Sequence record: PZ452609.1
Strand: one strand, 5' to 3'
Length of the DNA: 64,000 bases
Origin: a phage
Positions 11,259 to 34,405 of the stretch are shown here, piece by piece; the first letter of the stretch is position 1; each line of letters opens with the position of its first letter. The notes under the pieces are model-generated. The model was not told the origin of the DNA, ran no database searches, and saw only the letters and a list, made by a program, of their open reading frames with translations. A program made the translations under genes and the position numbers.

Positions 11259-16642
<5,384 letters not shown>

Positions 16643-18698: not shown

Positions 18699-18798
18699 NN
18701 NNNNNNNNNNNNNNNNNNNNNNNNNNNNNNNNNNNNNNNNNNNNNNNNNNNNNNNNNNNNNNNNNNNNNNNNNNNNNNNNNNNNNNNNNNNNNNNNNN
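18699..18798. other. 100-nt run of N (assembly gap or masked sequence)
   Basis: exactly 100 n characters. Confidence 0.95.
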
Positions 18799-23605: not shown

Positions 23606-24505
23606 TTACTTACCTACTGACAGAGGTGCTTCAATCTTCCCTGCATGTTGGTAGTTGTTAATACCACCAATAAAATCACTTGCAGTAAGATGTTTCAGGT
23701 CACTCAGGGTGTTAAGCTGTACACCAATCTCAAAAGTAGGTGCATGGAACTCTTCATTGTTCATCAGTTCATAAACCTGTTTCATATGGTTCTGATAAAT
23801 CTGAGTATCTCCAAAGACACCTATCAAGTACCGTGGAGTGTATCCAGTCATCTTACAAAGAACTTCTAAGATGAAACCATAAGACGCAATATTAAACGGA
23901 AGTCCTAAAAAGGTGTCTACTGAACGTTGATACCACTGTAAGTCAACTTCACCCTCATTAGTGATATAAATCTGAAACAGAACATGACAAGGTGCTAAAG
24001 CCATTGAGTTTGCTGCAATATCTGCTGCATTCCAAGCATTAACAAGCATGTAACGGTCTGTGATATCACCCTTCATCTTCGTTACTAAGGCCTCTAGCTG
24101 GTCTACAACACAACCATTATGACCTTCAAAGTTTCTCCACTGAACCCCATAGATTCTCCCACCTGCATCTTCTAACCAATCTTGTTCAGAAGAATAATTA
24201 GAACTTAACCAGCGTTTAAAATCATCTGACCAGATAGTCCAGCGTTCCCCATCATTTTCACCCCAAGTGCGATAACGGAGTTCACCAAGTTTATTCTCAC
24301 CGTTCAGGAACCATAGAGCTTCCCCAATAACTTGCCGTGTAAACACCTGTTTAGATGTTAAAAGCGGGAAACCAGTTCGCATATCAAAACGAAACTTAGG
24401 TGGAGCAAATGCAGAGATAACATCTCCAGTTCGTGTAGTACGCAGTTCACCGACTGATAAAACATGGTTCAGGATATTTTTATAACTTGAATCTGCTTGT
24501 GACAT
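23606..24505 (-). CDS. thyA: thymidylate synthase
   Basis: active-site region APCHVLFQIY ... RSVDTFLGLPFNIASYG matches ThyA signature. Confidence 0.9.
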   Translation of the reverse strand: MSQADSSYKNILNHVLSVGELRTTRTGDVISAFAPPKFRFDMRTGFPLLTSKQVFTRQVIGEALWFLNGENKLGELRYRTWGENDGERWTIWSDDFKRWLSSNYSSEQDWLEDAGGRIYGVQWRNFEGHNGCVVDQLEALVTKMKGDITDRYMLVNAWNAADIAANSMALAPCHVLFQIYITNEGEVDLQWYQRSVDTFLGLPFNIASYGFILEVLCKMTGYTPRYLIGVFGDTQIYQNHMKQVYELMNNEEFHAPTFEIGVQLNTLSDLKHLTASDFIGGINNYQHAGKIEAPLSVGK

Positions 24506-26199: not shown

Positions 26200-26499
26200 T
26201 TAATCTGCCAACCTTAAATTGAAATTAACACCAAATTTTTCACACACTTCCAACATATACTCAAGAGAGACATTCCCAGTGAGGTGGATTATGTTGGATA
26301 CACGAGCTTGAGAGATACCACAAATTTTAGCGACTTGTTCTTGAGAAAGACCTCTGGATTTAATCTCTCTCTTAAAACGATGTGCAACGAAGTCTCTCAT
26401 TTCGTCTACATCCATTGGACAAATATAACTCTCCATTTCAGCCTCTCTATCAGCCTCCCAATCATCTTGTGGAGCATAAGGGTCAAAAACCTCATTCAT
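26200..26499 (-). CDS. XRE-like helix-turn-helix DNA-binding protein
   Basis: LSQEQVAKICGISQARVSNI HTH motif at C-terminus; start at 26499 gives minimal overlap with upstream gene. Confidence 0.5.
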   Translation of the reverse strand: MNEVFDPYAPQDDWEADREAEMESYICPMDVDEMRDFVAHRFKREIKSRGLSQEQVAKICGISQARVSNIIHLTGNVSLEYMLEVCEKFGVNFNLRLAD

Positions 26500-26704
26500 C
26501 TTTCTTCTTCCGTTTACGTGAAGTATCAATTAATGAGTCTATGTTTGTAGCTCTGACCTTTTCACGTTCATCATTAAGATAATCATCAAGAGCCTTTTCA
26601 ATCTGTGAATCATCTTGACAGATGACTGTAAAGACTGTAAAGCCGTCTGTATCGTCAATTATCTTACCATAACCGCTTCTGGGATGTAACTTTTTAAGAG
26701 CCAT
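26492..26704 (-). CDS. hypothetical protein
   Basis: 70 aa ORF. Confidence 0.35.
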   Translation of the reverse strand: MALKKLHPRSGYGKIIDDTDGFTVFTVICQDDSQIEKALDDYLNDEREKVRATNIDSLIDTSRKRKKKDE

Positions 26705-30223: not shown

Positions 30224-32933
30224 TTAGTGAACCTCAAGCCAGCTTTTACCAACCTTACCAGTACCTGTAACAAGTGTTTCTTTCTTAAGACCTAAGTTTT
30301 TAGAAGCTTGTCCATAATACCAGTCAGTAACTGCTTTCACTTCTGCCGTCATACTTTCTGGACATTCCCAACTTGTTTCATCGTGATATGCGCAGAGCAA
30401 ACGAGCACCAATAGCTGGTTGACGACCATTCAATTTCATCAAACCTTCGTCAATCATACGACGACAAGCAAGGTTGATTGCCTCATTTTGAATCTGAGCC
30501 TCTGAACCCATCAAAAGGTAGTTCAACAGTTTGTGTGGAGATTTACACCACAACCAAGCTCCAGCAACCTTTACGAAGCCCCCTTTAGAGATTGCAGCGG
30601 TCTTACCAAACACCTCTTCAAGTGCCTTCTTAGTTGCTTTGTAGTCAGCTTCCAAGTTATCTAATAGTTTCTTAATCTTTGGCAAACGCACAAAGTAAGT
30701 CTGTTTAGTTAATGCACCTTCCTGAGTAGTGGCTGCCTTAATAGTTTTAGCAAACTTTTCATCACCTGCACCGAACAGTAGTGCATAGATACCATTCTTA
30801 GCTTTCTTACGACCTTTGCTAATCTCATGAAGAAGATTCTCATCCTGAGTAGCTCGACAAGTCAAGATATCCTGCTCATCATTCAAGCTAAAGTAAATAC
30901 TGTTCAGTGTATGTGCATCAGTCCCTGAATAGACAACGTACAGGTCATTCTCAGAGTCATAGCGAAGGTACTTATCAATTTCTGGGTTTAGGTACTCATC
31001 AAAATGTTTGCAGTAATAGCGTCCATCTTCTTGACGAATAAACTCAATCTCTTCTTTACCTTGCGTTACCGCTTTGGTGAAGTCTTTGTCACCCATAAAG
31101 TTACAAAGGAGAACTAGCTGGGCTGAGTTCATGTCTACAGAGACAACATTAGTACCTTCTTCACAAATCCACACTGCCCTCATTGGTTCCCCATAGACAG
31201 CCGCACCAGACGGTACGTTTACAATACCATATTGTGTCATACGTCCAGTTGAAGTACCAAATACCATTGCACCAGCACTAAGGCGACCATCTGGACGAAT
31301 CTGGTTCAGCCAACCTTTCTCGTCATCCTTTGAGTTCTCAATAGTTCTGCGTCTGTGCATCAAAGTGTAGTACTTAGCAATCTTCTGTCCAAGCTCACCT
31401 TCAATCGTATCATAAGATGATTCAGTAAGTTTTGGTGAAGTACGGATTAAGCAAGGCTCAAGCAAATCTGTGTATTTCTTCACAGACCAGTTATGCTCAA
31501 TGTACTGTACACCTTCATGCTCAACATAGCTCAAACCACACCGCTCAACCATTTCCTGCCACTTAGGATGCTTTGTAATCATCTTTTTATTGTCTTTGAA
31601 ACGACAAACTTTGACAGGGCGACCATCTGAGTCTTTCTTGTAGTTCCAGTCATCTGGAATCCAACCAACTGATTTCAAGTAGTCTTTAACAACTGCTACC
31701 TGAGTCATACGAGAAACTTCAAACTCAATTGGTGTATATGGTGCATCAATCAAACCTGTGTAGCGACTCGACTCAAGCTCAAAGTGGTTAACAACGTGGC
31801 TATTATAGTACTTCACAGTTTTGACTGTTTTTACTGGCTTCCAGTCTTTGCATTTCTTACCAATCTTTGCGTTCAACTCATTGCAAATTGCACGAGCATC
31901 CTTCATTGCTACAAAGCCTTCCTTGTACTCTTCACCAGTTACAGAGTTGGTTGGTGTATAGCAATTTCTCTTTTCAATGTTAAAAATCTTTGTAGTTGGC
32001 TTACCAAATGGCTTGATTTCGTATGTCTGCATCTCACCGTTACGTACCTGTTGACGATACTTTGTTTTAGGGTACTTGGTAATTCTCTTCAGTCCATCTG
32101 CATGACCGAATGTTTCAACATACTCATTCCAAGCTTTTGCAAACTCTTCTCCAGTGACTTTACCTTTGGTCTTAATAGTTGGAGGTAGATGTGGTTCAAC
32201 CTCTGAAGCAAGTTCATTAGTCAATTTGTCAAGCTCCTTTACATGGAACTCCATAAGCTCTTTATCAGCTTTCCAACCATTGATAGCCTGTTGGCTCATC
32301 CAGAAAGATGTCTCTTTAGCTCGCATGTAAGTTTCATAAGTGTCTATACCACACTTCTTAAGCTTGAGATACTCGTTATCAAGTGCCCGTTTAGTTTTGG
32401 CGTTAATACGGATATCTTCTACAACACGAGTGAAGATTTCTGCATTCCACACACCCCAATGCTCAATCTCTGGTTTACGAACACCAACACGAGCACCCCA
32501 TGCAGCCAAACCATGAGCACCTTTATAACCCTTTGGAGTTGGTCTATCCATCCACTGAACACGAGACTGGATAAGAGAGTCCTGAAAGAAATTACTCCAC
32601 GGCTTACATTTTGGATTATCAAAGTTCCATAAATCCGGTGCAATGTGATTGAAAACCCACCAGTCATAACCGAGACCATTATGGATACAAAGTCGTTTTG
32701 CCTTCAACGCAAACTCAATACCTTCACGTAATCCACCCTTGATGTACTTAGTGTACTTGTGACCGAGAATAGGCTCATCAGTAAAGACCCATACTGGTGG
32801 TTCTTCGTCGTCAGATTTGTAGTCTGCAAAAGCCATTACGTGAACTTTAGTGAACTCAAGGAGTAAACCATCAGTTTCTGTATCACCAACCAAATGTAAG
32901 TTTTTAAAATCTACGTTTTCCATTTTTACTCCC
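30224..32933 (-). CDS. DNA polymerase, family A, with 3'-5' exonuclease domain
   Basis: Exo I motif DTETDGL near N-terminus; C-terminal CAYHDE (motif C HDE); start 32933 has RBS gagggag. Confidence 0.85.
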
Positions 32934-32983
32934 TCTAAAATCATTAACCCCATACATTACTGCAAAAAATTATAAAAAGCAAG

Positions 32984-33013
32984 TTGACAATGTACTTGAC
33001 AAGGTGTTAATCT
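32984..33013 (+). promoter_or_regulatory. putative promoter TTGACA-N18-TAATCT in divergent regulatory region
   Basis: A-rich UP-like tract upstream; lies between divergently oriented - and + gene blocks. Confidence 0.3.
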
Positions 33014-33118
33014 TTGCGAAGTGGGTTTTTACTTAAAAGGTTACTTAACAGTTTAACTATACAGATACTTTAAAACTCTTAAAAGATTATTTAATAGCTT
33101 TTAAAAAGCTTTAAAGTA

Positions 33119-33137
33119 TAACGTATAGAATACGTTA
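33119..33137. promoter_or_regulatory. perfect palindrome TAACGTAT-AGA-ATACGTTA (candidate operator)
   Basis: 8-bp arms, 3-bp spacer, ~45 bp upstream of ATG 33181; flanked by three TTACTTAA(A/C)AG repeats. Confidence 0.4.
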
Positions 33138-33180
33138 AGATAAAAGATTAAAACTTAATAGTTACTTAAAAGAGGCTTAC

Positions 33181-33603
33181 ATGCAGAAAATGTTTGTTCA
33201 CCCAGACATAGCTGACTTTGTTAGAGCTTTGCAGAAGTTGGAAGAACTTGACATTGCTGCTCAACGGGAATATGCTCACCATCACAGGAGAATGGTTGAT
33301 ATACAACATGAAATAGAGTTATCAGAAGACTATGAAGATGACTTAAAATGCTCTGTGTTCGAGCATATGAAAGACGTTGCTATAGCTAGACGTAAAGCTA
33401 AAGATACAGTTGCTTTACTAGATTCTCTTAAAAAGAGGTTGCAAAGTGGTACAGACCTGTGTAATCTAGCATCACTGATTAACGATGTTGAAACTTCTTG
33501 GGACAGGCATTACTATCCACGTTCTGAAAAGACACTTGACTTTTCTTCATCTGAAAACTTAAAATGCTCTAGAAAGAAACTTAACCAACTGAGAGAGAAA
33601 TAA
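33181..33603 (+). CDS. hypothetical protein
   Basis: 140 aa ORF, first gene of rightward block. Confidence 0.4.
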   Translation: MQKMFVHPDIADFVRALQKLEELDIAAQREYAHHHRRMVDIQHEIELSEDYEDDLKCSVFEHMKDVAIARRKAKDTVALLDSLKKRLQSGTDLCNLASLINDVETSWDRHYYPRSEKTLDFSSSENLKCSRKKLNQLREK

Positions 33604-33604
33604 T

Positions 33605-34405
33605 ATGAATACTACTGTAGACCAAATGCTTAAAGAAAAAGGTATTGATGAAGCATTTTTAATCAATGCTGTAGAAAGCATGGCTATGATTCTTCGTGGA
33701 AATAACTATACAGAACAGTTTATGCCAAAAAGCTATAACTTGCCTGAAGATAAAACTGATAACGGTGCTTTTGCAGAGCAGGTTAATATGATGTTGTCAG
33801 ATACTACACTTGCCCTTGCATCTATTGCAGTCGGTGTTGATGCGCTTGCAGAGTTCATTTTTTATGAAATGCAAAAGAATGACTATATCAGGATGTCAGA
33901 TGAAGAAAAGGAACTATTGCTGACTAAGGATACTGATTTCCTTATTGACACACTAATCTCATCAACAAGTGCTGTTATGGCAGTTCTTGAGAAGCGCATG
34001 GAAGAGAAACTTTCACGATATGAAAAACTTGATTGGGGCGTAGAAGAGTTAAGCCCACGAATCAAAGAAATTATCCAGCAAACTAAAGAGTCTTTGGAAG
34101 AAGCTGTTGAAAATGACTCTGTAGCTAATATAGAACCTCTTCAGGTGAAAGTTGCACTGATGATTCCAGCTATCTCTACGATGATGAATATCGTTGCACT
34201 AATCCAACTTTCACAGATGATGGGTGTAAGTATTGAGTTCATTGAAGAGATGACTGGTGGCGTTAGTATGCAAGCAATCAATGATGTTTTGGTGAACATC
34301 GGTGCTTCAATCATTGAAGAGAAACTACGCATTAACTTCGGTGATGATTTTGTGAAGCAAATCTCAGCTATGGCTGAAAAAGAGTCTGCTGAGCAACTGC
34401 ACTAA
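33605..34405 (+). CDS. hypothetical acidic protein
   Basis: 266 aa ORF. Confidence 0.4.
   Translation: MNTTVDQMLKEKGIDEAFLINAVESMAMILRGNNYTEQFMPKSYNLPEDKTDNGAFAEQVNMMLSDTTLALASIAVGVDALAEFIFYEMQKNDYIRMSDEEKELLLTKDTDFLIDTLISSTSAVMAVLEKRMEEKLSRYEKLDWGVEELSPRIKEIIQQTKESLEEAVENDSVANIEPLQVKVALMIPAISTMMNIVALIQLSQMMGVSIEFIEEMTGGVSMQAINDVLVNIGASIIEEKLRINFGDDFVKQISAMAEKESAEQLH

Follow-up and report, generated by a model that had tools for sequence, protein, structure and literature searches.

A conserved array of repeat boxes and a dyad between the polymerase and replication operons of a Felix-O1-like phage

We analysed an AT-rich interval, at positions 33030-33180 of a 64,000-nucleotide stretch of phage DNA (record PZ452609.1; the whole stretch is called the window), that lies between a leftward DNA polymerase operon and a rightward replication operon. 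The interval had been flagged for repeats and palindromes that could form a switch for both operons. The 1.1 kb around it matches 301 phage records, and the best ones are all Felixounavirus. Closest are the E. coli O157 typing phages 15 and 1 (99.5-99.7%), with phage wV8 at 98.1%. Judged by these matches, the window is from a Felixounavirus, that is, a Felix-O1-like phage (Ounavirinae). Felix O1 is a classical typing phage for Salmonella, and biocontrol makes wide use of its relatives. The whole wV8 genome (88.5 kb), joined from four fetched pieces, was analysed alongside the window.

The intergenic region and its predicted promoters

In wV8, the leftward DNA polymerase gene is followed by the control region and then by a rightward block. 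The latter encodes a 140-amino-acid hypothetical protein, a 266-amino-acid protein, a deoxynucleoside monophosphate kinase, a small open reading frame (ORF), the primase/helicase, and further replication or nucleotide genes. PHROG and Pfam scans, of the genes on either side in the window, are consistent with the wV8 annotation. The most likely start codon of the polymerase gene is the ATG at 32923, preceded by the ribosome-binding site GAGGGAG; this start is annotated in phages Mushroom, SUSP1, and Mordin. With this start, the intergenic region spans 257 base pairs (bp) and has a GC content of 25-27%, compared to ~39% overall. Hence, the predicted AT-rich control region, between a leftward polymerase operon and a rightward replication operon, is present; it is both non-coding and conserved. 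Its non-coding core (32984-33180) is 82-85% identical across the genera Felixounavirus, Suspvirus, and Mooglevirus. For comparison, between-genera identity is 84-86% for the first 500 nucleotides of the polymerase gene, and 66-77% for the adjacent gene encoding the 140-amino-acid protein. A non-coding stretch that is conserved like the polymerase gene, and more than its other neighbour, is by this measure densely functional.

Seven loci were scanned with a sigma-70 position weight matrix. In the window, the predicted rightward promoter P_R (coordinates of all features are in Table 1) scores 12.9, placing it 25th of all positions in the 64 kb. A rightward promoter at the polymerase-proximal end was the top scorer in all seven loci (12.9-15.0). 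It occupies the same place in SUSP1, Mordin, MM7, Arno162, and L039, and every lineage has a rightward TTGACA-N17/18-(TGn)TAnnnT. Across 14 aligned genomes P_R is invariant. Its spacer contains a second TTGACA (32996-33001). Transcription is predicted to start at ~33019-33021, such that the flagged interval begins ~10 bp later. In the leftward direction, the hexamers of P_L are conserved across genera, around a spacer of constant length but variable sequence. Furthermore, strong leftward equivalents are found back to back with the rightward promoter, at the same place, in Erwinia phage MM7, Pectobacterium phage Arno162, and the IMG/VR sequence L039 (scores 9.5-11.6). On this evidence P_L is a candidate leftward promoter of the polymerase operon. 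Note that a perfect TATAAT (32969-32974, minus strand) falls in the candidate P_L spacer. Only Felixounavirus has this hexamer, which lacks a usable -35 element (TTGTCA copies are 10 and 22 nucleotides off). It might be a genus-specific extra polymerase promoter.

The predicted divergent promoters are thus positioned back to back at 32954-33013. The scan and the conservation both put them left of the flagged interval (33030-33180) and not within it. Hence, all of the flagged elements are downstream of the rightward promoter, in a leader of ~160 bp. Since the elements also share one orientation, they suit control of the rightward operon and not obviously both. The idea of a switch for both operons is therefore supported only in part.

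For Felix O1, divergent promoters were assumed at this locus but none were found (Whichard 2010, PMC3185647). The positions given here are explicit, conserved coordinates of predicted promoters where the 2010 genome paper had none. The same study reports that genes 96-99 are transcribed early, with a maximum at 25 min, and leaves unexplained both temporal control and the passage of transcription through numerous terminators. Our literature search for transcriptomes or promoter maps of these phages found nothing beyond this paper.

Repeat boxes and a dyad downstream of P_R

Three copies of an 11-mer, TTACTTAA(A/C)AG, were said to mark the interval. All are in place: TTACTTAAAAG at 33029-33039 and 33162-33172, and TTACTTAACAG at 33041-33051. 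These are the only exact matches in 64 kb, where 0.28 are expected and none of 100 shuffles reaches three. However, the 11-mer is specific to the genus. In alignments with Suspvirus and Mooglevirus, the 'TTA' prefix proved to be restricted to Felixounavirus, and only the core CTTnAnAG is retained. Hence, the real repeat is CTTnAnAG, with the general form CTNNNNAG, present in 7-8 copies of the same orientation. Boxes 1, 2, 4, 6, 7, and 8 in Table 1 match CTTWANAG, while boxes 3 and 5 are variants.

On the plus strand of 33020-33180, there are six copies of CTTWANAG compared to 0.18 expected. None of 5000 local dinucleotide shuffles reached six, so AT-richness does not explain the cluster. The copies are arranged as pairs, mostly 12-13 bp apart, and all that are non-palindromic point right (six on the plus strand versus one on the minus strand). 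No other CTTWWNAG cluster in the window is as dense as this array, and in the whole wV8 genome no other plus-strand CTTWANAG cluster is as dense. Variation is also specific to position. Among eight representative genomes, the six fixed box positions vary in 3 of 42 cases, compared to 6 of 14 for the two degenerate positions (Fisher p = 0.005) and 28 of 78 for the rest of the leader (p = 0.0004). Tandem arrays of the same type occupy the same place in Erwinia and Pectobacterium phages, and in a distant IMG/VR relative. One example from these lineages reads CTTTACAGGATT CTTTTAGAGATTC CTTTAAAGGATAT CTTTTAAAGATCAT CTTTAATAG.

Table 1. Features of the control region (window coordinates).
Feature	Position	Strand	Remarks
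Intergenic control region	32924-33180	.	between polymerase gene (minus strand, ATG 32923) and 140-amino-acid protein gene (plus strand, ATG 33181)
P_L, candidate sigma-70 promoter	32954-32982	-	-35 TTGCTT (32982 to 32977), N17, -10 TAATGT (32959 to 32954)
P_R, predicted sigma-70 promoter	32984-33013	+	TTGACA (32984-32989), N18, extended -10 TGtTAATCT (33005-33013)
Discriminator/initial transcribed block TTGCGAAGTGGGTT	33014-33027	+	nearly invariant across three genera
Box 1 CTTAAAAG	33032-33039	+	inside first TTACTTAAAAG; between genera only position 6 varies
Box 2 CTTAACAG	33044-33051	+	12 bp past box 1; only positions 4 and 6 vary (CTTTACAG, CTTTATAG)
Box 3 CTATACAG	33057-33064	+	general CTNNNNAG form, 13 bp past box 2; AACTATACAG invariant in alignments
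Box 4 CTTAAAAG	33078-33085	+	invariant in all genera
Box 5, degenerate TTTAATAG	33090-33097	+	invariant; 12 bp past box 4; within 23-nucleotide direct repeat D2
Inverted repeat AGCTTTT-A-AAAAGCT (7+1+7)	33096-33110	.	mostly invariant
Box 6 CTTTAAAG	33109-33116	.	self-complementary, invariant; as AGCTTTA ends 12 bp upstream of TAGAAT
Dyad TAACGTAT-AGA-ATACGTTA (8+3+8)	33119-33137	.	half-site centres 11 bp apart; candidate operator or hairpin
-10-like TAGAAT	33126-33131	+	dyad centre; candidate second promoter P2, poor -35
Box 7 CTTAATAG	33154-33161	+	CTTWANAG copy
Box 8 CTTAAAAG	33165-33175	+	box is 33165-33172; overlaps Shine-Dalgarno AAGAGG (33170-33175)
Shine-Dalgarno AAGAGG	33170-33175	+	for gene starting at 33181; ribosome-binding site annotated at same place in Mushroom

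Between boxes 6 and 7 is an inverted repeat that had been called a perfect 19-bp palindrome. The inverted repeat is real but, because its AGA centre is not self-complementary, it is a dyad of two 8-bp arms rather than a strict 19-mer. The dyad lies 44 bp before the ATG at 33181. In wV8, inverted repeats with perfect arms of at least 8 bp occur at ~10 loci. One such dyad is thus not improbable alone and its significance comes from conservation. Among 14 genomes, 93.8% of cells in the stem are paired, and two pairs are altered on both sides (A:T to or from T:A, and C:G to or from T:A). None of 500 shuffles matches this covariation and no slid register does as well. The dyad is confined to the clade of Felixounavirus, Suspvirus, and Mooglevirus; in Pectobacterium phage Arno162 only the centre, GTATAGAATA, survives without symmetry. 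Like operators for dimeric helix-turn-helix (HTH) proteins, the dyad has inverted half-sites about one helical turn apart, with symmetry kept in evolution. Taken with the box statistics, these comparisons show that both the repeats and the dyad are under purifying selection. A second symmetry, described as a near-palindrome, is in fact a perfect inverted repeat (AGCTTTT-A-AAAAGCT). We rejected it as a selected feature, since variants break the pairing and there is no compensation.

The dyad centre also contains a -10-like hexamer, TAGAAT, which is the -10 element in three of the top-scoring predicted promoters of wV8. Arno162 keeps GTATAGAATA with a good -35 element, giving TTAACA-N18-TAGAAT and a score of 10.6.

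Sister modules and the genome-wide box

The TTGACA-N6-TTGACA pattern of P_R, followed after 4-6 nucleotides by TAnnnT, defines a class with three members: the window promoter and promoters at 23802-23830 and 12517-12545 of wV8. These share a conserved initial transcribed block and, 20-45 nucleotides downstream, a pair of CTTnAnAG boxes with 11-12-bp spacing. For instance, TTCGAGGGGGTT, after the promoter at 12517, resembles the TTGCGAAGTGGGTT block. The invariant second TTGACA suggests a regulator site between the -35 and -10 elements. The promoter at 23802 falls in the other divergent intergenic region of wV8 (23703-23951), where the double-TTGACA promoter GTTGACAAAGTACTTGACAAGGTG is followed by ACTTAAAAGGTT, more boxes, and palindromes of its own. 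These palindromes, AGATATC-N6-GATATCT (23884-23903) and TCTTAAAAG-C-CTTTTAAGA (23912-23930), are upstream of the first gene behind that leader. They parallel the window dyad in placement and are unrelated to it in sequence. The occurrence of the promoter-plus-box module at two other promoters points to a role linked to transcription.

The box is also abundant elsewhere. There are 187 copies of CTTNANAG in the window, compared to 62 ± 8.5 expected, and 628 sites for CTNNNNAG. Inside genes, CTTNANAG reaches 3.4 and 3.5 times a codon-permutation null on the sense and antisense strands, respectively. When 4096 gapped patterns were ranked, CTTNGNAG, CTTNANAG, and CTGNANAG were first to third. For the general, self-complementary, form CT-N4-AG, the ratio of observed to expected sites reaches 2.05, and does so at N4 alone; there is no periodicity of three bases. 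The N4 peak was absent for the other dinucleotide pairs tested and for the other 15 self-complementary 2+4+2 words in wV8. We also shuffled synonymous codons, while holding every protein sequence and the codon usage (Table 2). An excess of CTNNNNAG was found in Felixounavirus and Kolesnikvirus, and was absent in T7, T5, and E. coli K-12. The wV8 excess is present in all three reading frames. Codon usage, amino-acid order, and codon-junction dinucleotides are thus rejected as the cause, both by the two nulls (codon permutation and synonymous shuffling) and by the restriction of the peak to N4, as N1, N7, and N10 show none. Such an enrichment at synonymous sites, throughout a genome, is unusual.

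Table 2. Occurrence of CTNNNNAG compared to synonymous-codon shuffles.
Genome	Observed	Null mean	Ratio	z
wV8	726	359	2.02x	21
Window	539	254	2.12x	21.8
Erwinia phage MM7	317	191	1.66x	10.9
T7	139	167	0.83x	-2.6
T5	178	166	1.07x	1.1
E. coli K-12 (49 kb)	97	101	0.96x	-0.5

Distances between CTNNNNAG sites peak at 11-12, 21-24, and 32-33 bp (38 and 40 pairs versus 9 expected), and these phasing peaks are also seen within genes. Between genera, coding sites are retained in position in 31% of cases, compared to 36% for control words, and so retention is not elevated. Hence, the genome-wide excess is one of density rather than of fixed sites. Unlike these coding sites, boxes of the intergenic array are conserved in place. 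The genome's densest arrays are outside the window, at 13936-15560 of wV8. This 1.6-kb stretch, between convergent transcription units, has no ORF of at least 30 amino acids. Both of its strands carry CTTAACA(A/G), CTAACAAG, and other CTNNNNAG boxes, often spaced at 10-12 bp. The genome ends, a packaging site, an origin, or a non-coding RNA might be located there.

Weighing the possible roles

The reading that we favour, with middling confidence, is that the rightward replication operon is controlled from this interval, by an array of protein-binding sites together with an operator. The interval forms the downstream half of the control region. Host RNA polymerase would start at the back-to-back sigma-70 promoters, entering the polymerase operon from P_L and the rightward operon from P_R. 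The 160 bp from P_R to the first rightward gene would then be a sequence-specific platform for proteins. Here, a DNA-binding factor would occupy the boxes, as its most strongly conserved sites, and a dimeric regulator would occupy the dyad. One candidate for the latter is an XRE-type (HTH_3) regulator that, according to the PHROG and Pfam scans, is encoded in the leftward block (26200-26529). The box factor and dyad regulator could modulate read-out of the rightward operon in either of two ways: by blocking transcripts from P_R, or by switching on the -35-poor promoter in the dyad. Modulated read-out of this sort would fit the published 25-min peak. Our data show the elements, selection on them, the paralogous modules, and the promoter positions as judged by consensus and conservation; what we infer, in this scheme, is protein binding, the identity of the binder, and the effect on transcription. 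The paralogous promoter-plus-box modules favour the transcription-linked role that it assigns to the boxes.

As an element, a promoter-operator region that is perhaps also an origin is of an ordinary kind. Conversely, the literature searchable here contains no description of the specific promoter class, the CTTnAnAG/CTNNNNAG box, or the dyad. Among the closest parallels are lambda OR (PR/PRM) and other switches of the Cro/CI type. Shared features are divergent host-type promoters (predicted in our case, with -35 elements 1 bp apart), a 19-bp dyad with half-sites one helical turn apart over a -10-like hexamer, and an XRE/Cro-type HTH protein encoded by the phage. However, the phage considered here is virulent and has a single operator, rather than a tripartite one. 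Furthermore, this operator is ~110 bp downstream of the main promoter, instead of over the promoter, and the recognition helix of the candidate HTH protein does not co-vary with it.

The dyad promoter can also be compared to T4 middle promoters, which have a MotA box, (a/t)(a/t)(a/t)TGCTTtA, ~12 bp upstream of a -10 element TAnnnT, and no -35 element. Similarly, AAAAGCTTTA ends 12 bp before the TAGAAT hexamer, which is without a -35 element, and, in published data, these genes reach their expression peak in the middle period. The likeness is imperfect. An A replaces the T before GCTT, such that AGCTTTA-N12-TAGAAT has one mismatch to TGCTTTA, and TAnnnT is at the right distance in two of the seven boxes checked. 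T4-like modifiers of RNA polymerase (MotA, AsiA) were not apparent in Felix O1 (Whichard 2010, PMC3185647), and no systematic homologue search was made here.

Several observations weigh against a protein-binding array with an operator. First, the promoters are not uniformly strong. P_L has a weak matrix score (6.1-7.4; 6.1 in the window), and the window version of P2 is just TTAAAA-N19-TAGAAT, with a poor score of 6.0. Literature searches found no published transcription start sites for any member of the group. Second, the dyad is a single occurrence, with no further copies in the window or the wV8 genome, and is absent from the Erwinia and Pectobacterium lineages. Its compensatory changes fit a hairpin of RNA or DNA equally well. 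Third, our attempts to find a protein for the boxes or dyad, via the fold of the 140-amino-acid protein and the XRE helix, failed. The XRE recognition helix, SQ(A/S)RVSNI, is the same in lineages with different operators, and co-variation between helix and operator was not found. The 140-amino-acid protein (33181-33603) is predicted to be a helical hairpin (confidence score, pLDDT, 73) with no Pfam hit, and a fold search of the PDB returned only generic coiled-coil matches. Homologue searches with this protein, and its 266-amino-acid neighbour, found relatives only within the subfamily and no domains. Finally, because CTNNNNAG is enriched throughout the genome, part of the local box density could be a general property of the DNA, rather than the mark of a local regulator.

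This last point can be taken further. Tentatively, the array could be the best-conserved local cluster of a genome-wide DNA code. If so, synonymous-codon selection would hold CTNNNNAG at ~2x, phased at 11-12 bp, for a chromosome-wide reader with about one site per 100 bp, and the tightest arrays would mark control regions for replication and early transcription. Candidate readers are a chromatin-like phage coating protein, an enzyme with a 4-bp stagger, or a modification system. The strand symmetry of CTNNNNAG, and its maximum in an ORF-free region beyond annotated terminators, argue for a reader of DNA rather than RNA. If the enrichment does stem from a DNA-reading factor, this would be an unusual case in which a single short word shapes an entire phage chromosome. 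As a lead only, T7 has short CCTAAAG-type repeated arrays next to its terminal repeats; we know of no function for them. There, as here, short AT-rich words ending AAAG are in tandem, in non-coding DNA, in a phage with a T7-like replisome, and wV8 has its largest arrays in the 1.6 kb that is free of ORFs. The two cases differ in word and in location.

A replication origin of the T7/T4 type, also raised by the original prediction, seems to us rather unlikely. Transcription from P_R would prime replication, or open easily melted DNA, and the phased boxes would organise initiation; this is compatible with regulation. In T7, the primary origin pairs the phi1.1A/B promoters with an AT-rich stretch; in T4, oriF and oriG each combine a middle promoter with a downstream unwinding element. 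By comparison, no other 150 bp of the 88.5-kb wV8 genome is as AT-rich as our control region (20.7% GC compared to 38.9% overall). Predicted to be the genome's least stable duplex, it is directly downstream of the strong, conserved, predicted promoter P_R. It is also located between the polymerase and primase/helicase operons, with adjoining genes for a T7-like primase-helicase and a family-A polymerase. However, the promoter is of the host sigma-70 type. An unwinding element needs AT-richness alone, yet the exact sequence here is conserved, with ordered repeats. The 7-8 direct repeats, in one orientation and at roughly helical spacing, next to replication genes in AT-rich DNA, also resemble the iterons of plasmid and lambdoid origins. 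Even so, the boxes are 8 bp long at 11-13-bp spacing, whereas iterons are 17-22 bp, and the word recurs at ~10 per kb throughout the genome. PHROG and Pfam scans, and the fold search with the 140-amino-acid protein, recognised no initiator-like protein next door, and a host-factor scan of the region found no IHF, DnaA, Fis, or CRP consensus and no GATC. In addition, the genome has three copies of the promoter-plus-box module, and the densest box arrays are elsewhere, in the ORF-free 13.9-15.6 kb of wV8. GC skew does not single out this site. The cumulative curve falls at ~15.6-24 and 55.7-66 kb and rises elsewhere (maxima at ~15.6 and 55.7 kb). Since its slope changes at all four strand switches, following the direction of transcription, we rejected skew as an origin marker. 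To our knowledge, no origin has been mapped in any Ounavirinae, and our result narrows the area in which to search.

Alternatively, the elements could act in RNA, as a 5' leader in which the dyad hairpin and AU-rich repeats influence translation, stability, processing, or terminator read-through, in the manner of nut/boxA. The boxes have the orientation of the rightward transcript and are downstream of its predicted start, the last one overlaps the ribosome-binding site, and the compensatory changes in the dyad are typical of a helix. The passage of transcription through the many terminators is noted as unexplained in Felix O1 (Whichard 2010, PMC3185647). However, the hairpin is weak, with 8 bp and two G-C pairs (7 bp and one G-C pair in Sf17 and Mordin), and the AGCTTTT/AAAAGCT symmetry is without compensation. 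Folding of the leader RNA is not significantly structured (z = -1.7; 9 of 200 shuffles), and an Rfam scan of the region gave only chance-level matches (E of at least 1.4, far below gathering scores). We also considered CTCTTAAAAG, which we take to resemble boxA plus spacer, as in lambda nutR. This likeness was rejected, since the boxA-like CTC is not conserved (CCCTTAAAAG, GTCTTAAAAG). Furthermore, the word is enriched equally on sense and antisense strands and is densest in an ORF-free region past annotated terminators. A purely RNA-level element is thus less likely than a platform for transcription control, and we consider it improbable. Lastly, AT-rich DNA is prone to repeats, and one 8-bp dyad per ~10 kb is to be expected, but a spacer with features due to chance or slippage is effectively refuted by conservation across three genera at the level of the polymerase gene, position-specific variation, compensatory changes in the dyad, and a box count that local shuffles never attain.

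Some further observations concern the genome at large. GATC is absent from the 64-kb window, the 88.5 kb of wV8, and 44 kb of Erwinia phage MM7, while CTAG and TCGA occur at ~0.3 of expectation. In the distant relative L039, the intergenic region does contain GATC. For the genus, the lack of GATC has been published before, in phages Alf5 and VpaE1 (PMC5477317, PMC4690856). The window contains a run of 100 N (masked or unsequenced) at 18699-18798, within the structural-gene block. Many records, as well as PHROG 4251, call the 266-amino-acid protein (33605-34405, plus strand) a 'minor tail protein'. Its place is in the replication module, right behind the control region, and it lacks any Pfam domain; the label looks doubtful.

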